Below are positions 228 through 14,173 of a stretch of 14,173 bases of DNA, one piece after another. The notes under the pieces are model-generated. The model saw only the letters and a list, made by a program, of their open reading frames with translations, did not search any database and was not told the origin of the DNA. The translations under genes and the position numbers were made by a program. This stretch comes from Vulcanimicrobiota bacterium (GTDB taxonomy: Bacteria > Vulcanimicrobiota > Vulcanimicrobiia > Vulcanimicrobiales > Vulcanimicrobiaceae): positions 1 through 14,173 of the forward strand of contig PLCF01000042.1 of assembly GCA_003135555.1 (NCBI GenBank). Reading direction: 5' to 3'. How positions within the stretch are numbered: position 1 is the first letter of the stretch; every line of letters starts with the position of its first letter.

Positions 228-875
228 TCAAGGGAGCTCGATCTCGGCCAAGTTCTTCTCGATCTTGCGCTTCACGCGCTGGAGCGCGTTGTCGATCGAT
301 TTCACGTGCCGGTTGAGGTCGCGCGCCATCTCTTGATACGATTTGCCTTCCAGGTACGACAGCAGCACCTGTGACTCGAGGTCCGACAGGTTCTCCTGGA
401 TGCGCGCCTTGATGTCTTCGGAGACCTCTTGATTGATCACGAGCTCTTCGGGATCGGAGGTCTTCTGCGACGGCATCACGTCGAGGAGCGTGCGCTCGCT
501 GTCTTCGTCGTAGATCGGCTTGTTGAGCGAGATGTACTGGTTGAGCGGGATGTGCTTCTGGCGAGTCGCCGTCTTGATCGCGGTGATGATCTGGCGGGTG
601 ATGCACAACTCGGCGAAGGCCCGAAAGCTCGAGAGCTTGTCAGCCTTGAAGTCCCGGACGGCCTTGTAGAGTCCGATCATCCCTTCTTGGATGATGTCCT
701 CACGGTCGGCGCCGATGAGGAAATAGCTTTTCGCCTTGATCCGTACGAAGTTCTTGTACTTGTTGAGCAAGAACTCCATCGCGAGGTTGTCGCCGGATTT
801 CGCCGCTGAGACGAGGTCCTCGTCCGGCCGCTCGTGATAGTCGAGGGCCTCGGCGACGGGCTGGGTGAGGGCCAC
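228..875 (-). CDS. sigH: RNA polymerase sigma factor SigH (Bacillota sigma-H type)
   Basis: 215 aa with SigH signatures YKNFVRIKAKSYFLIGADREDIIQEGMIGLYKA, FAELCITRQIITAIKTATRQKHIPLN and KSIDNALQRVKRK. GTG start with AAGGTAGG upstream. Canonical position after cysS-rlmB. Confidence 0.97.
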   Translation of the reverse strand: MALTQPVAEALDYHERPDEDLVSAAKSGDNLAMEFLLNKYKNFVRIKAKSYFLIGADREDIIQEGMIGLYKAVRDFKADKLSSFRAFAELCITRQIITAIKTATRQKHIPLNQYISLNKPIYDEDSERTLLDVMPSQKTSDPEELVINQEVSEDIKARIQENLSDLESQVLLSYLEGKSYQEMARDLNRHVKSIDNALQRVKRKIEKNLAEIELP

Positions 876-949
876 GTAAACCTACCTTAGGGGCAACCGT
901 CGAGCACGAAAACGCGGGCCGGAGCCCGTCAGGGCCGTGCCCGAACCGT

Positions 950-1816
950 CTAAGTATAGGAGGGTCCTTCTTCCGGGTCAAGGACAACCGACGCACTCGC
1001 CGCCGGGGGTTCGCCTGCTTCGCCACGCTGGCGAACCGCCTCGAACAGCAAAATCCCGGCCGCGACCGAGGCGTTGAGCGACTCGATTCGTCCGGCCAGC
1101 GGGATGGCGACGAGCACGTCGCACTCGCGCTGGACCAGCGGCCCGATGCCGGGGCCCTCGGCGCCGATCACCAGCGCCACGTCGCCCCGCAGGTCGACCG
1201 CGGTGTAGGCCTGGGCCCGGGGGCCCGGCGCCGCCCCGAAGACCCACATCCCGGCCTTCTTGAGGGTCCGGACCGCCTGGGCGACGTTGGCGACCCGCGC
1301 CACCGGAACGTACGCCGTCGCACCGGCCGACGACTTGCGAACGGTCGGGTTGACCCCGGCGCTGCGCCGGTCGGGGATGACGACCGCCGTGGCGCCCGCG
1401 CACTCGGCGCTCCGAATGATCGCGCCCATGTTGTGCGGATCCGTGACGTGGTCGAGCACCACGAAGAGCGCGCGGCGGTCGCGGGGCCGCAGCGCGATCG
1501 CCTCGTCGAGGCTGAGGTAGGCGAACGGCTCGCCGAACGCGACGACGCCCTGGTGCGCCTTGTAGGGGAACGACGCGAAGAAGGCGCGGCTCTCGAAGCG
1601 CACGGGGACGTTCGCGCTGCGCGCCCGCTCGAGCACGTTGCGCAGCGCCGGGTCGCGCTTGCGATCGTCTCCGACGTGGATCCGGCGCAACGGCTCGCCG
1701 GCGACGAGCATCTCGTCGACCGCGTGTAAGCCGTAGACGACGTCGTCCAGATCGATCCGCGGCGCGCGCCGCTCGCCCTGCGGGCGCCCCGCGCCTACGG
1801 GGCGGCGACGATCCAT
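950..1816 (-). CDS. rlmB: 23S rRNA (Gm2251) 2'-O-methyltransferase RlmB (SPOUT/TrmH family)
   Basis: C-terminal part of ORF 950..2710. Motifs VYGLHAVDE, HQGVVA, LDHVTDPHNMGAIIRSAE, VIGAEGPG, IPLAGRIESLNASVAAGILLFE. ATG at 1816 is preceded by AAGGA and overlaps the cysS end. Confidence 0.93.
   Translation of the reverse strand: MDRRRPVGAGRPQGERRAPRIDLDDVVYGLHAVDEMLVAGEPLRRIHVGDDRKRDPALRNVLERARSANVPVRFESRAFFASFPYKAHQGVVAFGEPFAYLSLDEAIALRPRDRRALFVVLDHVTDPHNMGAIIRSAECAGATAVVIPDRRSAGVNPTVRKSSAGATAYVPVARVANVAQAVRTLKKAGMWVFGAAPGPRAQAYTAVDLRGDVALVIGAEGPGIGPLVQRECDVLVAIPLAGRIESLNASVAAGILLFEAVRQRGEAGEPPAASASVVLDPEEGPSYT
953..981 (-). promoter_or_regulatory. sigma70/SigA-type promoter for sigH
   Basis: Minus strand TTGACC (981-976), 17 bp spacer, TATACT (958-953). 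Embedded in the last codons of rlmB, giving an ~70-nt leader before the sigH GTG. Confidence 0.8.
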
Positions 1817-3264
1817 GTCGTGCCGTCCTTGGAATCCTTGAGCGCGACCCGTTCGGCGGCGAGCGCGTCGCGCAAGCGGTCGCCCAGCGCGAAGTCCTTG
1901 TCCCGGCGCGCTCGCGCGCGCGCCTCGATCACCGCCGCAATCGCGGCTTGCGGCGTCGCCTCGCCGTTGAGGTGCAGCGCACCGCCGAGCCCCGCCTGCA
2001 GCCGTTCGACGAAGCCGGCGTCGAACTCGACCGGGCGTTCGCGGTACAGCGCGGCTTCGATCCCGAACAACGCGAACAGCTCGCGCATCAGCGCCAACCC
2101 CTCGTCGCGCTGCGCGGTATCCTCGTAGCGGAGCAACTCGCCGGCGAGATCGAACATGCCGCCCAGCGCGCCGGCGGTATTCATGTCGTCGTCGAGGTGC
2201 TCGAAGATCCGCTCGCGATAGTTTGCCGGCGCCGTGACGGTCCGCCCCGGCGCCGAGGGTTCGAGATCGCCGCTTTCCGCGCGCCGGAAGCTGCTCACCA
2301 ACTTCTCGAGCGCGCTGGTCGCCGCGCCGATCGACTCCTCGGTGAAGTTCATCGGCTTGCGGTAGCCGGTCTGCAGGAACAGCAGCCGAATCGCCAGCGG
2401 ATCGTGGCGTTCCAGCAGCTCCGAAAGCGGCTCGAAGTTGCCCAGCGACTTGGACATCTTGCGGCCGTCGAAGTTGAGCAGGCCGCCGTGCACCCAGGTG
2501 ACGGCCATCGGCGGTGCGTCCATGAGCGGCTCGCTCTGGGCGATCTCGTTTTCGTGGTGCGGAAAGATCAGATCGTAGCCGCCGCCGTGGATGTCGAAGG
2601 GCACGCCGAGCAGCGCGCGCGCCATTGCGCTGCACTCGATGTGCCACCCCGGTCGCCCCCGGCCCCACGGCGACTCCCATGCCGGCTCGCCGGGCTTGGC
2701 GAACTTCCACAACGCGAAGTCGAGCGGGTCGCGCTTGTACTCGTTCTCGGCGACGCGAGCCCCGACGAGCAGCTCGTCGACGTTCTTGCCGCTCAGCTGG
2801 CCGTACCGGGGAAACTTCGCTACGTCGTAGTAGACGCCGTCTTCGCTGGCGTACGCGTAACCGCGCTCGATCAGCTCGGCGATCATTTCGACGATCTGCG
2901 GGATGAAGTGCGTGGCGTAGGGTTCGTCATCGGGCTCGCGCACGTTCAAGATGCGCATCGATTCCCGAAATGAGTCGTAGTAGCGCTTGACTACCTGATC
3001 GAACGTCGTCCCTTCACGCTGCGCCGTGGCGATCGCTCGGTCGTCGATGTCGGTCACGTTCTTGACGTAGGTAACGCGCAAGCCGTTGCGCGCATGTTCG
3101 AGGTATCGTCGCAGCACGTCGAAGAACAAGAACGAGCGCGCGTGGCCCAGGTGTCCCTCGGCCGACGGCGTCAGACCGCACACGTAGACGCGAGCGCGTC
3201 CGGCTTGCAGCGGCGTGAAGGTCTCGACGCGCCGAGTACGCGTGTTATAAAGCCGAAGAGGCAT
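1795..3264 (-). CDS. cysS: Cysteine--tRNA ligase
   Basis: LYNT, YVCG, HLGH (HIGH), [57 protein letters not shown] and C-terminal [11 protein letters not shown]. Start placed at ATG 3264 (MPLRLYNT). Confidence 0.98.
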
Positions 3265-3943
3265 CCCGTCGCTCGATCTCCGCCAGGCGTGCTTCCAACG
3301 TGGCGATTCGTCCCGACAGCTCAGCGATGAGCGGCGCATTGGGATCCGGCATGTTGACGCGCGGCCGGGCCTCGGTTCCGATGACCGGCTTCCCATCCTG
3401 CAAGACGACGCGGCCCGGAATCCCGACCACGGTGGCGTTGGGCGGAACGTCTTTCACGACGACCGAGTTGGCGCCGATGCGCGCGCCGTCCCCGATCGTG
3501 ATGGCACCGAGGACCGCGGCTCCGGAACCGACCGTGACGTTGCGGCCCAGTGTCGGATGGCGCTTGGTGCGCGCGAGCGACGTTCCGCCCAGCGTGACGC
3601 CCTGGTAGATCGTGCACCCGTCTCCGATCTCGGCGGTCTCCCCGATCACCACGCCCATCCCGTGATCGATGAACACGCCGCGTCCGATTCGCGCACCGGG
3701 GTCGATCTCGATCCCGGTAAAAAACCGGGCGAACGTCGACAGGACGCGCGGCAGCACCGGAATGTGCGCGCGGGACAACGCGTGCACGAGCCGGTGCGCG
3801 ACGAGCGCGTGGAAACCGGGATAGGCCAGGACGACCTCGAGCCACCCGTTCGCCGCCGGATCGTTCTCGAGCGGCGCGCGCAGGTCCGCCAGCATGTCCT
3901 CGACCACCTTGACGGCCACGATGCTTCTACGAACCCGCGTCAT
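3245..3943 (-). CDS. cysE: Serine O-acetyltransferase
   Basis: DPAA...[51 protein letters not shown] and hexapeptide repeats. Start uncertain (ATG 3943, GTG 3919 or ATG 3895). Confidence 0.95.
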
Positions 3944-5396
3944 CCGCGCCGGTTGCCGCGCGTCCGGGCGGCGTCGGCTGGATCGTTTCGAACGGGACGC
4001 CGCCGGGGCCGTACTTGATCGGCTCGAGGCCGCGGCCGTGGAGGATGTGCGAGTTGACCGCGCCGATGCGGATCATGATCCGGTCGTGGCCGAGCAGCGG
4101 AAAGAGCTGCGCCAGCGGCGGACCGTCGTGGCTGCCCGTCAGCGCCATGCGCAGCGCTCCGAACGCGTCCTCCTTCGCAATCCCGAACTCGCCCGCGATG
4201 ACGGGTAGGTCGGCTGCGAGCGGCAGGTCGCGCAGCTCCGGCTGAGCATCGACGTACTGCGCGACCGCGTCGAGGAAGAACAGCACCTGGCGGTTGCGCA
4301 GCCGTTCGAGTTCCAGCGCGGGGATCGTGACCGCTTCCTGGCGTAACGCTTCGACCGCTTCGATCGCTTCGCCCAGCGTGTGCACCTCGGCGCCGAACGC
4401 GTCGAGGAAACTCTCGATCCAGCGGTGCGCCGCTTCCGGGACGGGATCTTCGAGCAACCGGTGCCGCTGCATCCACTCGGCGAGCAACGCGTGGTAGCGT
4501 TCGCGCGTGAGCGCGCGCAGCGCGCGCGCATTGAACGCGCGCAGGCGCACCTCGTCGAAGACGGACGGCGAGCTGCCAACGCGCTCGAATGAGAACAACC
4601 CCGCTAGCTCGTCGAGCGTGAAGGTCTCGCGTCCGTCGGGCGGCGACCAGCCGAGCAGCGCCAGATGTTCGATCACGGCCTCGGGCAGATAGCCCGCGCG
4701 GCGCAGCCGGTCGACGGTCATCGCTTCGTCGTCCTTCGCCGGCTTGTGTTGGGCGTCTACGATGAGACCGGTATGCGCGTATCGTGGCGGCTCGTAGCCG
4801 AGCGCGAGCGCGATCGCTTTTTCGCGTGCCGTGTCGTCGAGGTGCTCGTCGCCGCGTAGAACGAGGTCGATGTGCATCGTCGCATGGTCGACCGTCGCCA
4901 TGAAGTAGGTACTGTACTCGCCGGCCGCCGTCCGCAGCTGGACGTTGCCGTCGATCGAGAGGTGCACGGTGCCCTTTATCGCGTCCTCGACGGTGACTCT
5001 GCCGGGTCCAGCCAGCCACACCGCACCGTCCTGCACGAATACGGCACGGCCACATTCGCGCACCGACCCGTCCGCCCACAGCCGGTCGAGGTGCTCGTCG
5101 TATAGGCTTCGGCGCTCGGAGCGCCGGTACGGTCCGTGCGGACCGCCGACGTCCGGGCCTTCGGCCCAGTCCAGGCCGAGCCAGCGCAGATCGCGCAGCA
5201 CAGACTCTCCGTCGCCGTCAGCACGTCCGGGCGTGTCATCGAGGAGCAGAACGAGCCGGCCGCCGGTCTTTCGCGCGAGCAGCCAGTTGAAGAGCGCGGT
5301 GCGCGCGCTCCCGACGTGCAGCGTCGCGGCGGACGGCGCGAAGCGCACCCGCAGCGCGCGCCCGGGCTCGAGCAAGTCCATCGGCCTCGCGATCAT
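3927..5396 (-). CDS. gltX: Glutamate--tRNA ligase-like protein with degenerate catalytic motifs
   Basis: [53 protein letters not shown]...LALLGWS, and anticodon domain LRMALTG..GPPL. Canonical gltX position. However SPTG is SAAT, RIEDTD is LLDDTP and KLSKR is KPAKD. Confidence 0.8.
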
Positions 5397-5402
5397 GCCC
5401 CG

Positions 5403-5423
5403 CGGCGGAGCGCGCCTCCGCCG
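5403..5423. promoter_or_regulatory. GC-rich hairpin immediately upstream of the gltX-like gene
   Basis: Perfect 8-bp inverted repeat cggcggag (5403-5410) / ctccgccg (5416-5423) with a 5-nt loop, between the small-ORF stop (5432) and the ATG at 5396. No U-tract. Confidence 0.4.
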
Positions 5424-5431
5424 AAGGTCAT

Positions 5432-5584
5432 CTACTCGGCTTCGTCTTCCTCGTCTTCGGTCGCGGTGTCACCGCCGCCGGGTGGCGGTTCGCCGACCGG
5501 TCGGCCGGGCGGCATTCCGCTGGCCAGAATCTCGCCTAAGAGTTCGTCGAGATCGGTGCCTAGGTTGCGTTCGAGCAGTAACAT
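5432..5584 (-). CDS. Putative 50-aa acidic, Pro/Gly-rich micro-protein (MLLLERNLGTDLDELLGEILASGMPPGRPVGEPPPGGGDTATEDEEDEAE)
   Basis: ATG 5584 to TAG 5432 fills the gap between the LuxR gene and gltX, with a protein-like amphipathic start and acidic tail. Rare TTA/CTA codons and the lack of a strong RBS lower confidence. Confidence 0.45.
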   Translation of the reverse strand: MLLLERNLGTDLDELLGEILASGMPPGRPVGEPPPGGGDTATEDEEDEAE

Positions 5585-5656
5585 GGTCCCGGCCGGTTCG
5601 GGGGCTGCGGGCGGAAACCATGCGACCGACCTGCACCTGTCGAACGGTGCGACCGG

Positions 5657-8401
5657 ATGATATCCTCGGCCCTGGTTTGCCGCGAGATGATCGCTCGCTC
5701 GTCTGAGCTCGACGTGCTTCTGGCCTGCCTCCGGCCGGATGCAGCGCGCAGCTCGTCGGTCGTCGTCGTGTGCGGTGAGGCGGGGATCGGCAAGAGCCGG
5801 CTGGTCCGCGAGTTCGCCGCCGCCGCGCAGCGTGTCGGCGCCCGCGTCGTCACCGCGACGGCGCGCGAATACGCGAACGCACCGTACGGTACACTTGTCG
5901 AGGCGCTCGAAGCGTTGGGTGCGCACGCGCACGTCCTGGCCGAGCAGCGCCCGCGCGGCGACGGCGCCGACGAACGGGGCCGGCGGTACTCCGAAACCGC
6001 CGCACAGCTCGAGGAGTTCGCACGCAACTCGCCCGGCGGGTTGGCGATCGTCTTCGAGGACGTGCACTGGGCCGACGGTGGGACGCTCGAGGTGCTGCGG
6101 TTTCTCGCGCCGCGCTTCGCTCAGCACCATGTGACCTTCGTGGCGACCTACCGCAGCGACGTGCTCGATGCCGACCCGGTGCGGGCCGGGGCGATCGCGG
6201 CGCTCGAGCGCGACGCGGCTCACGTCATCGCGCTGGAACCGCTCGCCGGCGAACAGATCGAACGGCTGCTGCGCAGCATCTTGCGCGACGCCGCGCGCAC
6301 GCTTTCGCCGACCGCCCTGGCCGAGCTGCGCGAGCTCGCCGACGGCCGCCCGCTTTTCGCCGAGGAGCTGCTGCGCGGCGTGCTCGAACGGATCGACCGT
6401 GACGGCGACGCGCGCGCGCTCGTCCCGACCAGCATCCGCGCGACGGTGCGCGAGCGCTTCGGCTCGCTCGCGCCCGAGGAGCGGGACGTCCTCGTTCACG
6501 CAGCCGTGGTCGGCCGGCGCTTCAGCGCGCGCTTCCTCATGAGCCTGGCGGGCCTCGAGGCGACGCTGGTCTTTCGAGCGCTGCGGCGCGCGCGCGACCT
6601 GCAGCTCGTCGTCGAACAGCGCAGCGACGACGGGGACGCGTTCGCGTTTCGCCACGCGCTCACGCGCGAGGTCGTCTACGGCGAGATGCTACGTGCCGAG
6701 ACGCGCGAGCTGCATGCCCGCGTCGCGGCGGCGCTGGCGCGCGAGCCGGTGCTCGACGTCGCGGCGATCGCCGAGCACGCCTACCGCGCACGCGACGCGG
6801 AGCACGCTCTGGCGTGGGGTGAGCGCGCGGGCGATGAAGCGCTCGCATTGTACGCCTATGCCGACGCGGGCCGGCACTTCGAGCGCTGCATCGAGTTCGC
6901 GACCCTGGCCGCCGACCTGGAACGTCTGGCGAGGAAGGCCGCCGAGGCCTTCTACGCCGGCGGCGATCTCGAACGCACGACGCGCTGGCTTACCGCGGCG
7001 ATCGGCGACGGCGGCGTTGCCGCCCGGCCTGAGATCGCGCCGCTGGCAATCCGGCGCGCGCGCGTCCTCTGGGAGCTCGGACGATACGACGAAAGCATCG
7101 TCGACCTGCGCCGCCTCGCCGCCGAGATGACCGAGCCCGGGCCACGCGTCGAAGCGCTCGTGATGCTGGCCGGACTGCTCATCCCGCGCGGCCGCTTCGA
7201 AGAAGCGCTCGAGCAGCTGCGCCTGGCGGCGCCGGCGATCGGCGACGCCGAGCCGCGCCTCGTGACGCTGTACCACAGCACCTTGGGATACGTGCACGGC
7301 CTCATGGGGGACGCCGCGCAGGCGCGCGCGCACTTCGCGCTCGCGATCGCCGGCGCTCGCGAGCAAGGCGACGACAACGTCTTGCTGCGCATGCTCAACA
7401 ACAACGGCAACGTCGAGCTCGCCGCGGGGACCGTCGCGGCGGCGCGGCAGCTGTACGCCGACGCCTTGACCATCGCCGAGCGAACCAAGAACTTTCCGGT
7501 CGCCGTCGCGTGGCTGGCGCAGAATGCCGCGCTCGCCGCGCTCGTCGGCGGCGATCTCGCCGAGGCCCGCAGCCGCTTGAAGCTGAGCCGCTCGATCGCG
7601 CATGACGTCGCCATTTCACGGCGCTGGGTGACGGCCCTGACGTTACGCATCGCGACGCTGGCCGGGGAAGAGCGCGCGGCTGAGCGAGCCGACGCCGAAC
7701 GCGAGCTCGAGTCCGCACTCGCCGACGCCGACGAGCAGGGCTCTGCGGGCTTGGGCGGCGCGCTGGCCTTCGACGCGATCGCCGAGCACCGTCCGGCGGA
7801 CGCGGCGGCGTTCGTGCGGCGCGCGCTTGCGGTGGTGGCTCGACCCGACGCGCCGTATTGGGTGTTGAACGCTGCCACGCGCATCGGCGAGCCCGCCGAC
7901 CGCGATCGCGCCCGCGCGGCGCTCACGTTGCTCGCGGCGCGCGAGGGTGCACTCGGTGCTCGCGGGCTGCTCGCGCTCGCCGACGCGCGGCGGCATCTGG
8001 GCAGCCGCAGGCGCGAGGATGCCGCGGCGTGCGCGCGCGCAGCGGCGGAGGCGTTTCGCGGCGCCGGCTGGCTCATCGAAGAGGCTGAAGCCCTCGAACT
8101 CGCCGGTCGGGTCGCCGAGGCGCTGGCCTTGCTGCGCCGCGCCGGCGCGCTTGGCGAGGTCCGGCGCCTGACGGAGACGGCGCCCGCGCCGAGCCGCCGC
8201 CGCGGCGACGCCGGCTTGACGGCGCGCGAGCGCGAGATCGTCGGATTGCTCGTCGCCGGCCGGACCGCGCGCGGGATCGCGGACGAGCTGGTGATCTCCG
8301 AGCGCACCGTCGAGACCCATGTGGCCGCCGCGTATCGCAAGCTCGGCGTCTCGAATCGCCAGGAGCTCGCGGCGATCCTGGCCGCCGGGCGGGCACACTA
8401 G
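5657..8401 (+). CDS. Large ATP-binding LuxR-family regulator (AAA_16-type NTPase + TPR-like helices + LuxR HTH; LAL/MalT-like STAND architecture)
   Basis: Walker A GEAGIGKS, Walker B IVFEDVHWAD, GRPLFAEEL (GxP), FAFRHAL, Ala-rich helical repeats, and C-terminal LTAREREIVGLLVAG...IADELVISERTVETHVAAAYRKLGV. Confidence 0.95.
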   Translation: MISSALVCREMIARSSELDVLLACLRPDAARSSSVVVVCGEAGIGKSRLVREFAAAAQRVGARVVTATAREYANAPYGTLVEALEALGAHAHVLAEQRPRGDGADERGRRYSETAAQLEEFARNSPGGLAIVFEDVHWADGGTLEVLRFLAPRFAQHHVTFVATYRSDVLDADPVRAGAIAALERDAAHVIALEPLAGEQIERLLRSILRDAARTLSPTALAELRELADGRPLFAEELLRGVLERIDRDGDARALVPTSIRATVRERFGSLAPEERDVLVHAAVVGRRFSARFLMSLAGLEATLVFRALRRARDLQLVVEQRSDDGDAFAFRHALTREVVYGEMLRAETRELHARVAAALAREPVLDVAAIAEHAYRARDAEHALAWGERAGDEALALYAYADAGRHFERCIEFATLAADLERLARKAAEAFYAGGDLERTTRWLTAAIGDGGVAARPEIAPLAIRRARVLWELGRYDESIVDLRRLAAEMTEPGPRVEALVMLAGLLIPRGRFEEALEQLRLAAPAIGDAEPRLVTLYHSTLGYVHGLMGDAAQARAHFALAIAGAREQGDDNVLLRMLNNNGNVELAAGTVAAARQLYADALTIAERTKNFPVAVAWLAQNAALAALVGGDLAEARSRLKLSRSIAHDVAISRRWVTALTLRIATLAGEERAAERADAERELESALADADEQGSAGLGGALAFDAIAEHRPADAAAFVRRALAVVARPDAPYWVLNAATRIGEPADRDRARAALTLLAAREGALGARGLLALADARRHLGSRRREDAAACARAAAEAFRGAGWLIEEAEALELAGRVAEALALLRRAGALGEVRRLTETAPAPSRRRGDAGLTAREREIVGLLVAGRTARGIADELVISERTVETHVAAAYRKLGVSNRQELAAILAAGRAH

Positions 8402-8476
8402 CTCGGTACCGGAGCCGCCCAACCTCAGTACCCGTCCCGGATGCCGGGCGCCCGCCGGCCGGTTAGCCTAGACTCA
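8402..8476 (+). promoter_or_regulatory. Putative activator-dependent leaderless promoter
   Basis: TAGCCT (TANNNT -10) at 8464-8469, 6 nt before ATG 8476, with no SD. Imperfect direct repeats CTCGGTACC (8402-8410) and CTCAGTACC (8424-8432) lie upstream, 22 bp apart. No consensus -35. Confidence 0.45.
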
Positions 8477-8664
8477 TGAATGCCATGGAGCACGCTCGCA
8501 GCGTCCTGGGCGCGCTGCGGTTCGTCGCCGACCTCTCCGCAGCCGCAGCCGAATGCGACCTTGCGCGAACCCGCGACGACGAGTTGACCGCGCGCCGCCG
8601 GCTGCGCGAGATCGTCGCCTCCGACGATCTGCCGCGCGACGAGATCGGGGTCGTGGCGCTATGA
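8476..8664 (+). CDS. Hypothetical 62-aa protein
   Basis: ATG just after a -10-like box, codon usage typical of the window, helical-looking sequence. Its TGA overlaps the next ATG (ATGA 8661-8664). Confidence 0.6.
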   Translation: MNAMEHARSVLGALRFVADLSAAAAECDLARTRDDELTARRRLREIVASDDLPRDEIGVVAL

Positions 8665-8837
8665 TCTGGTTCGCACCGTTTCATGCCCTGGCCGACGAAG
8701 AGCCCGATCCGCGGACTGCGCGCCAGCGCACCGAGCCGGCACATGCGCCCGGCGACGACGACGACGATGACGGCGCCGGTCCCGACCGCGCCCACGAACG
8801 GCCCGATCCCAACGAGCCGCGCGCCTCGCGGCGCTAG
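8661..8837 (+). CDS. Hypothetical 58-aa acidic, probably disordered protein (MIWFAPFHALADEEPDP...GDDDDDDG...RR)
   Basis: ATGA coupling to the upstream ORF. Its TAG (8835-8837) overlaps the convergent ispF TAG (8834-8836) in a shared CTAG. Confidence 0.55.
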   Translation: MIWFAPFHALADEEPDPRTARQRTEPAHAPGDDDDDDGAGPDRAHERPDPNEPRASRR

Positions 8838-9332
8838 CGCGCGGCGAGCGACTCCACGAGGACGACCGCGTGGGCGGCGATCCCCGTACCGTCGCCGGTG
8901 TATCCCATCCCCTCGGAGGTCTTGGCCTTCACGCTGATCAGCGCGACGTCGAGCCCCAGCACGTCGGCGAGGGCGTCCCGCATCAGCGGCACGTGCGGCG
9001 ACAACCGCGGCAGCTGCACGATGACCGTGGCGTCGACGTTGGCGATCGTCCAGCCGTGACGCACCGCCAGCTCGTGGCACGCGGCCAGCAGACGCAGCGA
9101 CTCAGCGTCCTTCCACTGCGGGTCGGTATCGGGGAAGTGCGCGCCCAGATCGCCCAGCGCGCACGCGCCGAGCAGCGCGTCGGCGATCGCATGGGTCAGC
9201 ACGTCGCCATCGCTGTGTCCCAACGGCCCGGCGTCGTGCTCGATGCGCACGCCGCACAGCACGAAGGGACGTCCGGCCTCCAGGCGGTGCGCGTCGAAAC
9301 CATGACCGACCCGAAACGGCGGCGCACGCCAC
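8834..9332 (-). CDS. ispF: 2-C-methyl-D-erythritol 2,4-cyclodiphosphate synthase
   Basis: RVGHGFDAHRL, GHSDGDVLTHAIADALLGA, GDLGAHFPDTD, NVDATVI, SVKAKTSEGMG. There is no in-frame start near the N-terminus. GTG at 9332, 1 nt after the upstream TAA, fits if one extra base near 9326-9329 is removed. Confidence 0.93.
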
Positions 9333-9333
9333 G

Positions 9334-10287
9334 TTACACCGCGCTGCGCGGCGCCAAGTGCGAAAGGTGCGCGGTGTAGAGCGCATCCTCGCCGGCGAGC
9401 GCGTGCAGCCGCGTCCCGAAGCCGCGCAAGCGCCGCGTTGGTCGCGTAGGCGCGGATGACCGTGGCGCCGGGAAGGTCGCGCTCGATCTCGTCGACCCGC
9501 GCCGCGCGCGCCTCGAGCTCGAGCAGCACCGCAGTCGACCGCACGCCGATCGACGTAACACTCGACGACCAGGATCTCTTCCTCGGGGATCTCCGCCGGG
9601 CGCGCGCTCGCGCAGCAGCGCTTCGGCGCGCACCAGATCGTTGGGCAGCGTGACCTTGAAGTTGGCGAAGGCGCTCTCGACGATCATGACGTCGAGCCCG
9701 GCGCGTTCGAGCAAGCGCAGCGTCGTCGGTCGCCGGCGGTTGACCGTGGCGCAGCGCTTCGGCGTGCGCGCGGCGCAGGTCCCGCGCGGTGGCGAATTGC
9801 GGCGTCTGTGCGGCCCACAAGCGTCGAACGGTCGAGCGTCCGCGTCACCTTACCGTCCGGCGCCGGCGACCTTCACGGTATCGACGATCGGGTTCGCCAG
9901 CAGCGCTGCGGTGCCTGGGCGCACCGGACGCATCCCGTTGCGAACGTCGGACGTCTGAACCAGCGGGCGCGCACCGTCGTGCACGAGGACCGCGGCGACG
10001 TCGTTGGAGAGCGCGTCGAGGCCTTGTCGAACGCTGCTCTGGCGGTCCGGGTCCGCCGCGCACCACGCTCGTCGTAGCGTGCTGCACGCGCGGCGTGCGC
10101 GATCGACTCCATCGCTTCGATGAACTCCGGCTCGGTCACGATGACCAGCTCGGAGATCTCCGCCATCGACGCGAAGGCCTCGACCGACCACGCGACCATC
10201 GGCTTTCCGGCCAGCTTCGACGAGCTGCTTGGGCCGCCCGAAGCGCTCCCCGTGCCCCGCCGCCACGATTACCGCCCCCCAGATCAT
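9334..10287 (-). CDS. ispD: 2-C-methyl-D-erythritol 4-phosphate cytidylyltransferase with ~85-aa C-terminal extension (frameshifted in this sequence)
   Basis: IspD motifs are spread across frames: [84 protein letters not shown]. Removing nine +1 insertions gives a 314-aa ORF ending at TAA 9334. ATGA overlap with yacL. Confidence 0.88.
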
Positions 10288-11345
10288 GCGCGCGCCTTCG
10301 GACGGGCGAAGATCATGCGGCCGGCGTTCGTCTGCAGGGCGCTGGTCACCGCGACGTCCACCGTTTCGCCGATCAGGCGCCGTCCGTTCTCGATCACGAT
10401 CATCGTTCCGTCGTCCAGATACCCAACGCCTTGATGCGCCTCGCGGCCTTCGCGGATCACGCTCACGCGCAGCTCCTCGCCCGGCAGGAGCACCGGCTTG
10501 ACCGCGTTGGCCAGCTCGTTGATGTTCAGAACGGTGACGCCCTCCACGTGTGCGACCTTGTTGAGGTTGTAATCGTTGGTGACCAGCTTCGCACCGCGCT
10601 CTTGCGCGAGGCGAACCAGCTTGGCATCGACTTGCGCGATGTCCTCGGGATCGCGCTCCACGATCTCGATCGCCGTCGTCTCCTGCAGTGCCGCGAGGAG
10701 CTCGAGCCCGCGGCGTCCGCGGGTGCGCCGCAACGGGTCGGCGCTGTCGGCGATGAGCTGCAGCTCGCGCAACACGAAGCGCGGCAGCAGGAGCGGCCCT
10801 TCGAGAAAACCGCTGCGTACGATGTCGAGCACGCGGCCGTCGATGATGACCGACGTGTCGAGCAGCTTCGGTTCGCCGCCGCCGGCCGTCGTCGCCGCCG
10901 GCGCGGCGATGCGGCCGATCGCGACCCGCTGCTTCGCCCCGACGCGCGCGCCGAGGAAGGCGGCGAAGATCGACAGCACGAGGTACAGCGCGATGGCGAT
11001 GTAGCCGCCGGTCGGTCCGGCGAAGGCGACGAATTCGAACAGGATGCTCTTGACCAGGAACGCGATCACGAGCCCGGTCACCAGACCGATCGCACCGCCG
11101 ACGAGCTCGCCCGGCGCGAGCCGGTCGATCGCCCGTTCCACGTGGTGCAGCTCCGTCTCGAAGAGCATTTGCGTGACCGGCACGACCATGACGCCGATGA
11201 CCGCGCCGAGTACCGGTGCGACCACCAGGGTCGTGAGCTGCCAGAATTGGCTGGCCACGTGGAGCGAGATGAGGTGGAGATAGGCCTGCTGGCCGAGCAG
11301 AAATCCCGTCACCCCGAAGATCAGGGCGAAGACGAGGCGCAGCAT
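10284..11345 (-). CDS. yacL: Membrane-anchored PIN/TRAM domain protein (YacL family)
   Basis: Four hydrophobic N-terminal segments, [76 protein letters not shown]. Start set at ATG 11345, after the repaired hemW stop; the alternative is ATG 11393. Confidence 0.93.
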
Positions 11346-11367
11346 GACCGTGCCGCCGCGGCCGGGT

Positions 11368-12500
11368 TCAGGCGAGAAACGCGCCACAGACATCGTTCGC
11401 TACGAACCGGCCGCGGTCGGTGAGGCGCAGCTGACGCGGGGCCGGCGTCGAGCACGCCGTCCGCCACGAGATCGTCGACCACCGAGCCGGTATCGTTCCA
11501 ACACATCGATGCCGTAGCGTTCGCGGAACGCTTGCACGTCGACTCCTTCCGCGGTCCGCAGCGCCAGCATGATCGCTTCGCCGGTCCGGGCGGCGCCTTC
11601 CAGCCGCTCGCTCTCGCCCGGGATAAGGTCCCCGGTGAGTGCCGCATCGCAGTACGTCTCGAGGTTGCGGGTGTGGGTCGAGCGCACGCCGTCGAGGTAT
11701 GACGCGGCCCCGACCCCCAGCCCCAGGTACGGCTCGTTGGCCCAGTAGAGCGCGTTGTGGCGGCAGCGGAACCCGGGCTTGGCCCAGTTGGAGATCTCGT
11801 ACTGCTCGAAACCTGCGACGTGCAGCCGGTCGATCGCGATGGCGTACAACCGCGCTTCGTGCGTCTCGCCGGCGAACGCGCCGGGGTCACGCGCGAACCA
11901 CGCCGCGTAGGGCGTGCCCTCTTCGATGGTGAGCCCGTAGCACGACACGTGCTCCACGCCGAGCGCCACTGCCGCATCGAGCGACGCCGCCCAGCTGTCC
12001 TCGCTCTGCCCCGGAACGCCGAAGATCAGGTCGATCGAGACGTTGGTGAAACCCGCGGCGCGCGCCGCGCGCACCGTATCGGTGACGTTCGCCGGCGTAT
12101 GACGCCGGCCGAGCACTCGCAGCTCGTGCGGCTCGAACGACTGGACCCCGATCGAGAGGCGGCTAGCGCCGGCCGCGCGCAACCCGCCCAGCCGTTCGGC
12201 CAACGACGGATCGGGGTTGGCCTCCACGGATACCTCGGCGTCAGCCGGAAGCGCGAAACGCGCGCGTACGCCTTCGATGAGCGAACCGATGATCTCCGGA
12301 GCGTACATCGCCGGCGTCCCTCCGCCGAAAAACAGCGTCCGCGCGTGGACGCGCGGCGACGTCGTCAGCTCGGCGCGTAGCGCATCGAGATAACGCGCCG
12401 CCCGCGCATCATCCCACGCCCACTTCGCGAAATCGCAATACGGACAGATATACGGACAGAACGGCAGGTGGACGTAGACGCCGGCCCGCACCGCGTTCAC
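11368..12500 (-). CDS. hemW: Radical SAM heme chaperone HemW (two apparent +1 insertions near the 3' end)
   Basis: [16 protein letters not shown] (CxxxCxxC), [42 protein letters not shown]. The C-terminus continues [11 protein letters not shown] then [20 protein letters not shown] in two shifted frames. GTG 12500 overlaps the upstream TGA. Confidence 0.93.
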
Positions 12501-13645
12501 GGACGCAGCGACCGTCCTTCGGCGCTGCCGTGGCGCAGCCAATGCTCGTAGCCGCTGGCGAACGTTCCCTCGGCAACCGCAGTCCGAACGTCCGGATTCG
12601 CACTCAGATATTCTTTTTCGAGGAATTCCGGGAACGGCCGCTCCGCCTGCAGACCGAAGGAGCTCAGGAACGCCCGCACGACCTCCTCGCCGGCGTCCTC
12701 GGAGACGTGCGACTGGTCGGGTGCGTAGGCGCGGCTCCGGTCGCACACCGTGACGATCTCGTACGCCGGCCAGTACTCGACGTTGGCGCGCTCGCGCGCG
12801 ATGTCGCCCGCGACGGCGCGCAGCGTCGATTTGCCGTACACGTTCGCCGTCAAGACGTCGGTCGAGGTGAACGTCCGGTGCATCGGCACGGGCGAGACGG
12901 TCAGGATGACGCGAAGATCGGAACGACCGGCCGCGGTCAGGAGGTCCAACATCTCGGCGATCCGGGCGCGGTTCTCCGCGTAGTCGCTGACGTGCACGCT
13001 GAAGCGACCCGGGAAACGCTGCACGGTGTCCCAGCTCGGCGTGATGTTCAGATACAGCTGCGTCGCGCGGTCGTACCACACTTCGACCAGCCCCAGCGTG
13101 AGGATGACGACGCTCGCGTCCTTCAAGCGGCCGAAATACTCCCGCAGCTCGCCGCGGCGCTCGCGTGCGCGCTCGAGCGAGATCGGTCCGCCGATGTCTG
13201 CGAGCTGCAAGTCGCGGTACCCGCTACCGTCGGGGACGATCGCCTCGTCGGGAAACGGAACGCCGGCGAGCGACCAGCGCATCTCGTTGAGCATCGACGC
13301 GGTGGTGTACTTGTTGACGCCGTTCGCCCCGATCCCAGGGTCGCCCGGCTCTGCCCGGAAGCGCATGCTCGTCACGTTCAGGCCGCGGTATCGCAGCTGC
13401 CGTTCGATGACCCGCGCGAAACACGATCCGATGCAAAAGAACGCATCGTCGGGCATCACGCGGAACTTGGGCTCGACATTCGGCGTCGCAAAACCGTTGG
13501 CGAGACGGCCCCGGACGCTGCGCGGGAACTTCTCGGACTCGACGGGGACGTCCCACACGGCGTGCGGCTCTGCCACTGAGCGCTCCCACGCCTGTGCTCC
13601 TTCGACTCCCGGATCGTGCGGAGCCGCGATCGAATGCACCCTCAT
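12497..13645 (-). CDS. GSCFA-domain protein (putative SGNH-like hydrolase) with C-terminal YL.ANPDV...G..HW..HG..EGR module
   Basis: IGSCFA, ILTLGLVEVWYD, ILTVSPVP, ANVYGKSTLRAVA, YWPAYEIV, DQSHV. Start overlaps the degV stop (ATGA) and stop overlaps the hemW start (GTGA). Confidence 0.88.
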   Translation of the reverse strand: MRVHSIAAPHDPGVEGAQAWERSVAEPHAVWDVPVESEKFPRSVRGRLANGFATPNVEPKFRVMPDDAFFCIGSCFARVIERQLRYRGLNVTSMRFRAEPGDPGIGANGVNKYTTASMLNEMRWSLAGVPFPDEAIVPDGSGYRDLQLADIGGPISLERARERRGELREYFGRLKDASVVILTLGLVEVWYDRATQLYLNITPSWDTVQRFPGRFSVHVSDYAENRARIAEMLDLLTAAGRSDLRVILTVSPVPMHRTFTSTDVLTANVYGKSTLRAVAGDIARERANVEYWPAYEIVTVCDRSRAYAPDQSHVSEDAGEEVVRAFLSSFGLQAERPFPEFLEKEYLSANPDVRTAVAEGTFASGYEHWLRHGSAEGRSLRP

Positions 13646-14120
13646 GCCTCACCCGGGATAACGAAGATTCCGACCGCTCCTTGGCCGGCGTGCGTGCCGA
13701 TCACCGGGCCCGCTTCGAGCACTTGGATCGAGAAGGGTGTCGCCGTGATCTTCTCGCGCAGCTTGGTCACCACGCGTGCCGCTTCTTCCGCCGTATGCGA
13801 ATGGATCACGGAGATCCGCGCGCCCTCGGCCTTGTTGGCCTCGAGCGCAACCGCGTCGATCATCGAGTCGATCGCGCGCGCGAAGGTGCGCACCCGGGCG
13901 TGCGGCTCGATCTTGCCGTCCTCGATCCGCAGCACCGGGACGATCTTGACCAGCGAACCGACGAACGCTTGCGCGCGTGAGACGCGTCCGGTGCGCACGG
14001 CATGCGAGAGATCGGGGAGCGTCGCGAAGCCGCGCAGCACCGCTCGATCGCGCTCCACGGCTGCCAGTACCGCGGCCGCATCGGCGCCGGCCTGCGCGAG
14101 CTCGGCCGCGTGCTGCGCGC
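13642..14120 (-). CDS. degV: DegV/FakB family fatty-acid-binding protein, C-terminal part
   Basis: HAAELAQAG, TLPDLSHAVRTGRVS, GSLVKIVPVLRIEDGKIEP..RVRT, ISVIHS, GPVIGTHAGQGAVG. DegV-like sequence is lost beyond about 14120. Confidence 0.88.
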
Positions 14121-14173
14121 TCGCAAGAACCGGGCGGTCATGCTCGATGGCGTGACGCTGGAGGATCCCGACT
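14098..14173 (+). other. Short GlmU-like coding fragment at the window edge (probable chimeric join)
   Basis: The plus frame reads ELGRVLRARKNRAVMLDGVTLEDPD, resembling the GlmU linker helix/LbH start (R..N..LM..GVT..DP). The degV frame over the same bases is not DegV-like. Confidence 0.55.

Follow-up and report, generated by a model that had tools for sequence, protein, structure and literature searches.

A second domain at the C-terminus of IspD is known from the IspDF enzymes, in which IspD is fused to IspF, as in Campylobacter jejuni and Helicobacter pylori. Small domains of beta-alpha-beta-beta-alpha-beta order occur on other metabolic enzymes, among them the HisG C-terminal, ACT and PII-like domains, which bind effectors. 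Domain V of elongation factor G (EF-G; Pfam family EFG_C, PF00679) has the same order of elements; a conserved basic loop faces rRNA in EF-G, and the domains other than V make most of the ribosome contacts. An EF-G domain V-like fold is also found outside translational GTPases, in the C-terminal domain of the YigZ/IMPACT family, which we take to be DUF1949. A 2025 review of IspD (PMC11770629) singles out IspDF as the exception to the usual IspD structure and contains the terms "elongation factor", "fusion" and "C-terminal" zero times. The protein described here, IspD-EFG_C, is a second and different architectural exception of IspD, in which a translation-factor domain has been recruited onto a metabolic enzyme. 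It is encoded on a stretch of 14,173 nucleotides from a Vulcanimicrobiota bacterium (assembly GCA_003135555.1, contig PLCF01000042.1), referred to below as the window. No description of such a fusion was found in the literature listings, whose coverage does not extend to subscription journals.

Read on the minus strand, positions 10287-9334 of the window are one gene, intact in nature, for a two-domain protein of about 314 amino acids (aa), which consists of IspD, a linker of about 9 residues and an EFG_C domain of about 80 residues (hereafter the module). The parts of the gene are as follows.

9604..10287, minus strand: IspD catalytic domain (PF01128), with six spurious single-base insertions in the window copy
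9585..9603, minus strand: variable linker from IspD to the module, with a seventh spurious insertion inside, at 9590-9602 by the alignment used
9337..9584, minus strand: EF-G domain V-like (EFG_C) module of beta-alpha-beta-beta-alpha-beta order with a short variable tail, with two spurious insertions, at 9532/9533 and 9428/9429
9334..9336, minus strand: TAA codon that ends the IspD-EFG_C gene, two bases before the ispF start codon
9325..10217, no strand: ten single extra bases of this assembly, located by frameshift-aware alignment, DNA alignments and public contigs

In the three minus frames of 8820-10300, the IspD-like text hops from frame to frame and is followed by about 85 residues with no stop in between; the post-IspD text is spread over three frames, each one base further on, and with the module as query, pieces of the window were matched at E 1.9e-12 and 3.1e-11. 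A frameshift-aware protein-to-DNA aligner, in which base skips are allowed, was written because tblastn bridged the frameshifts with gaps and alternative frames with a high guanine + cytosine content also aligned. Three same-genus proteins were aligned with it against the window DNA. The read-through was one continuous protein from ATG 10287 to TAA 9334 with no internal stop, 78-80% identical to the three relatives (246-257 of 320-321 residues). Both the frames and the alignment bear out what a preliminary description of this DNA had noticed, namely that IspD ends here without a stop and without a separate start, and the EF-G domain V-like peptide which it had obtained by removing single bases was reproduced letter for letter. 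Three frameshifts had been placed there at about 9599, 9533 and 9428. Three were indeed found on the module side, at about 9591-9594, 9533 and 9430, but the gene as a whole has nine, the six more lying in IspD at about 10215, 10091-10094, 10051, 9858-9861, 9821-9824 and 9715; each of the nine skips is exactly one base.

The frameshifts of the window, ten in total, are errors of this assembly and not biology. A DNA alignment with seven relatives placed window-only insertions at 10217, 10094, 10051, 9860, 9820, 9714, 9602, 9533 and 9429, and a tenth extra base at about 9325 masks the GTG start of ispF, the next gene. DNA alignments with seven and nine relatives had no window-only indel in the coding parts of ispF or of the yacL-like gene that precedes ispD. 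Public short-read contigs of three studies (X1, X2 and X5), with 0-2 other letters differing from the window, omit one base at 9325, 9428, 9532, 9590, 9713, 9819, 9861, 10047, 10088 and 10214/10216, and in the same runs the flanks 8800-9044, 10361-10671 and 10950-11337 were gap-free. The best-matching contigs perhaps derive from the source sample and are thus not independent biology; the extra bases still belong to this assembly. Since a separate 2-kb GTPase gene elsewhere in the same genome has an unbroken frame, the error patch is local. The module is therefore hidden by frameshifts in this window, as had been proposed, but these are assembly errors, absent from the X1, X2 and X5 contigs.

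Ten frameshifting insertions within about 900 bases, between intact flanking genes, might instead mark a true, frameshift-broken pseudogene of this organism. This is scarcely credible, given that all ten are +1 with zero deletions and zero stops, that substitutions are not in excess (the identity of 78-80% compares with 81% for the neighbouring yacL-like gene), that the contigs of three studies, otherwise identical, lack every one of the ten insertions, and that IspD-EFG_C is the sole full IspD match in the genome. A local error patch of this kind would lead annotation pipelines to call an essential gene a pseudogene.

The patch (9325-10217) has 1.1 kb of clean sequence upstream and 0.5 kb downstream, and four of its ten insertions are an extra T before G (CTG written as CTTG three times and ACG as ACTG once). 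An unpolished patch is one possible candidate cause of the clustering. Against nine relatives, three further window-only single-base insertions were seen at 11434, 11483 and 8729, none of them in coding sequence of the yacL-like gene, ispD or ispF. Frameshifts also occur in two relatives: in locus L044 (G097:C3:495500-499000) IspD and the module lie in two frames with a single frameshift between them, and in locus L008 of genome G015 the frame is shifted and continues into ispF as a 496-aa open frame. Both are probably assembly errors too.

In other relatives the gene is unbroken. IspD and the module form a single open reading frame (ORF) of 312-321 aa in six of the seven same-genus loci, the seventh being L008. 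The same holds for 29 of another 30 family loci, with ORFs of 311-327 aa, and the thirtieth begins at a contig end. No stop follows IspD in these frames, which upholds the fusion as first proposed. Three of the 30 loci belong to genomes that are unpublished (G051, G139 and G164); such genomes enter only this count and some of the genome tallies, and the alignments, models, trees and statistics were made without them. The fusion protein holds no GTPase domains, and the module sits after IspD. As in IspDF, a second domain is thus carried on the C-terminus of IspD; unlike IspDF, this domain is no pathway enzyme and IspF has a gene of its own. The IspF (YgbB) domain is encoded outside the IspD polypeptide, by an ORF that has its own start, both in the window and in 25 of the 31 relatives' loci parsed, where ispF comes next and the stop and start often overlap. 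An index-free search of 1.84 billion representatives of all lengths found no stand-alone or differently fused module, so that a separate gene for the module, the arrangement that the preliminary description had set against a fusion, did not turn up. Short representative matches were considered as stand-alone modules and rejected, because they start inside IspD or the module or are frameshifted.

Two side observations concern module-like sequences elsewhere. The unpublished genome G051 holds a second module copy on another contig (G051:C208:4683-4943; 133-aa open frame; E 7.4e-19 with the single-protein query and 1.4e-35 with the profile), which may be explained by a duplicate strain in the bin or by a fragment at a contig end. 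Four proteins (P0133, P0143, P0147 and P0149) join canonical EFG_C (84-97 bits) to TetR_N, radical-SAM/4Fe-4S, biotin-lipoyl or LysR substrate-binding pieces and may be chimeric metagenome gene calls or real odd architectures.

The module is homologous to EF-G domain V, and the colinear match is not due to chance. An alignment (A1) was made of 31 modules from published genomes and a profile was built from it. When the modules were searched alone against Pfam, 31 of 31 matched EFG_C at E <= 0.01 (best 1.3e-11) and matched no other family; in the six same-genus full-length proteins, the match ran colinearly over profile positions 4-87 of 89 in every case. The scores of these six were 14.4-24.0 bits, none reaching the EFG_C gathering score of 27.9, and four more distant members of the family exceeded it with 29.8-31.4 bits. 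Against PDB, the A1 profile gave 49 matches at E <= 10 (best 2e-6), 48 of them to EF-G, EF-2, TetQ or mitochondrial ribosome-releasing factor 2, itself an EF-G-type factor, and always at domain V; module positions 8-84 correspond to residues 603-678 of T. thermophilus EF-G. Both profile searches bear out the colinear agreement that had been noticed at first. Among the 1.84 billion representatives there were 113 profile matches at E <= 0.001. The best 30 of these 113 were 11 IspD-linked sequences (7 with IspD residues and 4 fragments), which rank first, followed by 19 that were canonical EFG_C in 19 of 19 scanned. Genomes of the phylum showed a strong class of module-profile matches (E <= 1.2e-19, frames of about 310-385 aa) and a weak class (E 3e-11 to 1e-6) formed by EF-G frames of about 700 aa, one of which, when read, was fusA between rpsG and tuf. 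With language-model features, 30 of 30 matches were EFG_C clusters. As to the donor of the domain, EF-Gs of the phylum scored 36-45 bits and EF-Gs in PDB 19-31, but the unlabelled canonical fragment P0131 scored 55 bits. Standing after IspD and outside any GTPase, the module represents a new architectural setting for a homologue of domain V, and the protein does not belong to the EF-G family.

An EF-G paralogue was also noticed in the window's own genome (L048, G000:C46:4214-9217), a 720-aa open frame 35% identical to a fusA of the same genus. This genome is 84% complete and yielded no complete canonical fusA, the best candidate being a short match at a contig end.

The fold check by AlphaFold and Foldseek, suggested at the outset, agreed with the profiles. 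The AlphaFold2 model of the module had a mean predicted local distance difference test (pLDDT) value of 89.7 and the beta-alpha-beta-beta-alpha-beta order, and all 50 Foldseek matches listed were EF-G, eEF2 or Snu114-containing/spliceosome entries, with a template modelling (TM) score of 0.73-0.81 and a root-mean-square deviation (rmsd) of 1.0-3.2 Å over 79-89 columns. On EF-G domain V itself the model gave a TM of 0.76-0.81 and an rmsd of 1.0-1.4 Å. When 48,161 chains were searched by structure, domain V of BipA, EF-G-2, EF-G, LepA, TetM, Snu114 and aEF2 took the first 12 places (Z 10.0-13.6), and a second tier at Z <= 9.7 comprised PII-like, CutA1, YigZ, HisG C-terminal and ACT-type domains. 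The module therefore shares with EF-G domain V about 77 colinear residues, the order of elements and a closely superposable fold; it differs in lying outside any GTPase at the C-terminus of a metabolic enzyme, in being far more acidic, in having "AGEDA" in place of the "S.TQGR" loop and in that its same-genus members fall below the gathering cut-off. The YigZ/IMPACT-family C-terminal domain (1vi7_A 130-206, Z 9.2; 2cve_A, Z 7.9) resembles it in folding like EF-G domain V without being part of a translational GTPase, but it has another partner domain and gave no Pfam match in the module, which is nearer to EF-G itself.

The second tier also bears on what the module does. It might be a strict ligand-sensing allosteric domain, through which a pathway or end-product metabolite, for example 2-C-methyl-D-erythritol 2,4-cyclodiphosphate (MEcPP), isopentenyl or dimethylallyl diphosphate (IPP/DMAPP) or a nucleotide, feeds back on IspD. 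The fold is common to ACT, PII-like and HisG C-terminal domains, which work in this way as small domains on metabolic enzymes, and PII-like (Z 8.0-9.4), HisG C-terminal (Z 7.9-8.6) and ACT-type repressor (Z 8.1) structures are neighbours of the model. The module likewise sits at the C-terminus of a metabolic enzyme and is subject to purifying selection (see below), and among the ten residues invariant across the 31 modules of A1 are the charged E14, R32, D37, R41 and R50. However, these domains have no sequence relationship to the module, their structural scores are below those of the EF-G type, and ACT, PII-like and HisG_C profiles gave no match at E <= 10 in the six full-length proteins or at E <= 0.01 in the 31 modules. 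No ligand-binding family was matched at all, as EFG_C was the sole Pfam family at E <= 0.01 and only one weak domain of unknown function joined it at E <= 10 in the six full-length proteins. Several of the invariant positions are conserved in EF-G too and so may be structural. We consider a ligand sensor of this kind unlikely.

The N-terminal domain is an ordinary IspD, the predicted synthase of 4-diphosphocytidyl-2-C-methyl-D-erythritol (CDP-ME) and third enzyme of the methylerythritol phosphate (MEP) pathway. Six same-genus orthologues scored 204-211 bits against PF01128 (cut-off 27) over profile positions 3-221 of 221; the window's own pieces scored 50.4 bits, and 77.4 with in-frame neighbours. 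The model of a full-length relative was a two-domain chain with a pLDDT of 91.0, dipping to 75 in block 221-230, and a predicted TM score (pTM) of 0.87. Its residues 1-226 superposed on Bacillus subtilis IspD (5hs2_A) with Z 29.9 and an rmsd of 1.9 Å over 223 aligned residues at 36% identity, and the full-length model matched Escherichia coli 1i52 with Z 29.0; a solved chain spanning both IspD and the module was not found in the structural search with this model. The review cited above gives Gly18, Arg20, Lys27, Gly82, Asp106, Arg109 and Lys213 as the strictly conserved catalytic residues of IspD in E. coli numbering (PMC11770629). In the 31 sequences G13, R15, K20, G77/G78, D103, R106 and K209 are invariant and, by their order and motifs, are the putative counterparts of the E. 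coli residues. The remaining PF01128 matches of these genomes cover only part of the domain and are weaker by 40 orders of magnitude or more, so that the fusion protein is the cell's IspD; as the sole full IspD match it presumably makes CDP-ME.

Only part of one Eremiobacterota family has the fusion, which originated within that family. With the module profile, strong matches were obtained in 62 of 206 genomes of the family, plus the window's own, and in none of 94 genomes from 20 other families of the phylum. Unpublished genomes account for six of the 62 (G049, G051, G058, G130, G139 and G288). The single-protein query detected the module in 56 of 151 genomes and 28 of 78 genera. Database proteins with the module amounted to 196 matches, which among the 120 listed were labelled IspD and came from sources named Candidatus Eremiobacteraeota, Ca. 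Elarobacter, Baltobacteraceae and Vulcanimicrobium alpinum. EFG_C appears in the precomputed Pfam lists of only 5 of these 120, and since the records say simply IspD, the feature is easily missed. One module-bearing protein of 317 aa (P0076) has the source label Vulcanimicrobium alpinum WPS_14190, a cultured member. A link with phototrophy was considered and rejected: PF00124 reaction-centre genes occur in 28 of 151 family genomes, and the module was present in 10 of these 28 (36%) compared with 55 of 150 (37%) overall.

Family members without the module have plain IspDs of about 221-241 aa (40 proteins), and in their loci the absence is clean, without a remnant. Presence and absence vary even inside two genera, g11 and g73. 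A quick maximum-likelihood tree was built from 73 IspD-domain rows. In it the outgroups and basal family lineages have no module, and the module-bearing rows are strongly clustered: they require 6 changes, as compared with 23.6 when the labels are shuffled, and not one of 500 shuffles came down to 6. Module-bearing rows enclose four module-less lineages, and an approximately unbiased (AU) test rejects a single clade of all module-bearing rows (p-AU 0.021), so that some backgrounds can do without the module. The history is most simply read as a single gain within the family and then several clean losses, which the differences within g11 and g73 fit.

Where present, the module is kept under purifying selection. 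Mean pairwise identity was 0.63 for IspD, 0.58 for the module, 0.34 for the linker and 0.21 for the tail, and the median ratio of nonsynonymous to synonymous substitution rates (dN/dS) was 0.35 for the module and 0.30 for IspD, both rough values with dS near 1. These numbers bear on the idea that the extension is a tolerated passenger, a duplication accident slowly being lost. Its patchy occurrence in 62 of 206 family genomes, the differences within genera, the nested module-less lineages and the AU test against one module-bearing clade would all fit such a passenger. The module's dN/dS and its identity of 58%, near those of the catalytic domain while linker and tail drift, do not, nor do its ten invariant residues across 31 sequences, its well-folded model and the absence of any remnant where it is missing, and we regard a passenger as decidedly improbable.

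The genes on both sides of the fusion on the window are as follows.

10284..11393, minus strand: gene for a PIN + TRAM domain protein (YacL-like), an ORF with Pfam PIN at E 5.4e-8 and TRAM at E 1.2e-7
8834..9332, minus strand: ispF (MEcPP synthase), a separate gene, PF02542 YgbB at E 3.7e-63

The TGA stop of the yacL-like gene (10286-10284) shares bases with the ispD ATG in an ATGA overlap, and the ispF start is GTG 9332-9330, which is in the IspF frame only after the extra base at about 9325 is dropped. The ispD-EFG_C gene is translationally coupled on both sides, within a conserved yacL-ispD-ispF cluster. Over 228-14172 the order is DegV, GSCFA, HemN-like radical SAM, PIN-TRAM (YacL-like), ispD, ispF, gltX, cysE, cysS, SpoU methyltransferase and sigma factor, which we take to resemble the Bacillus yacL-ispD-ispF-gltX-cysE-cysS-rlmB-sigH cluster. 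Between ispF and gltX, the cluster is split by a gene on the opposite strand (5657-8401) for a 914-aa AAA_16/TPR/LuxR-type regulator.

Given that ispF comes directly next in 25 of the 31 loci parsed and in the window, its start overlapping or adjoining the stop of the fusion gene, and that the module occupies the place of the IspF domain in IspDF proteins, the module could be a docking adaptor that tethers IspD to the IspF trimer (or to IspE), as a non-covalent counterpart of IspDF. Yet the ispD-ispF adjacency is identical in 40 of 40 module-less loci and is therefore uninformative about the module. In addition, IspF showed zero columns that separate module-bearing from module-less genomes (28 vs 37 rows), whereas the same test gave four columns in the IspD domain that are specific to module-bearing proteins. 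An adaptor of this kind is rather improbable.

The clustering with gltX, cysS and an rRNA methyltransferase gene, together with the fact that the module is a true homologue of EF-G domain V and nearest to bacterial EF-G proper, might suggest that it keeps a role in translation, by bringing IspD to the factor-binding site of the ribosome or by binding RNA. Several observations oppose this. Relatives without the module have the same gene cluster, and the module is a lone domain V without the other EF-G domains. The net charge of the module core is on average -6.3 (range -9 to -4, 31 sequences) as against -1.2 for 13 canonical EFG_C stretches, lysine is near-absent (mean 0.06 per module), and the canonical loop of the "TQGR" type is replaced by "AGEDA". 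Judged by its sequence, this acidic, loop-altered surface does not look like an RNA-binding one, and a retained translation role appears highly improbable. The acidic surface and the altered basic loop would argue against rRNA binding and leave protein contacts possible. It is accordingly conceivable, though equally improbable, that the module still recognises a protein of the translation machinery, either at the factor-binding site or as a partner of EF-G, and ties MEP flux to the state of translation in slow-growing soil bacteria.

The reading that we favour, tentatively and with slightly less than an even chance of being right, is that the module is an accessory domain docked on IspD and acting within the same protein. 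It is favoured because of the acidic core, the changed loop, the pTM of 0.87, the arginines of the IspD domain and the want of any IspF column. The pTM suggests that the two domains of the model are held in a fixed arrangement. Two of the four module-specific IspD columns are arginines, R120 and R168 (in 320-aa numbering), and each is replaced in three of the four nested module-less lineages. The module, strongly acidic and changed in its conserved basic loop, would no longer serve the ribosome. It may pack in a fixed manner on the IspD catalytic domain via these two arginines, present only together with the module, and it would then act on IspD itself, tuning its activity, stability or oligomeric state. 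Such work would resemble that of the C-terminal beta-alpha-beta-beta-alpha-beta regulatory domains on other enzymes, for example HisG.

Several points weigh against this picture of the module and its history. The proposed mechanism is built from charge, a global pTM and co-variation. A contact of R120 and R168 with the module is conjectured from the co-variation, which is confounded by descent, with only about four loss lineages and thresholds chosen by the authors. The reference protein (L012) itself has L and K at the R120 and R168 columns. To these are added the same-genus EFG_C scores below the gathering score, the four nested module-less lineages and the AU rejection of a single module-bearing clade, all given above.

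Considered separately, the architecture and history are close to certain: an intact IspD-EFG_C gene whose frameshifts are assembly errors, and a fusion limited to one family, maintained under purifying selection and lost in nested lineages. For the whole explanation, architecture and conjectured role together, we see the balance as tipping somewhat in its favour. IspD is a well-studied drug and herbicide target, and here its fusion is conserved under selection in part of a little-known phylum with a cultured module-bearing member. If the module does regulate or organise IspD, the MEP pathway would have a new point of control, and the module would exemplify an EF-G domain that has gained a non-ribosomal job.

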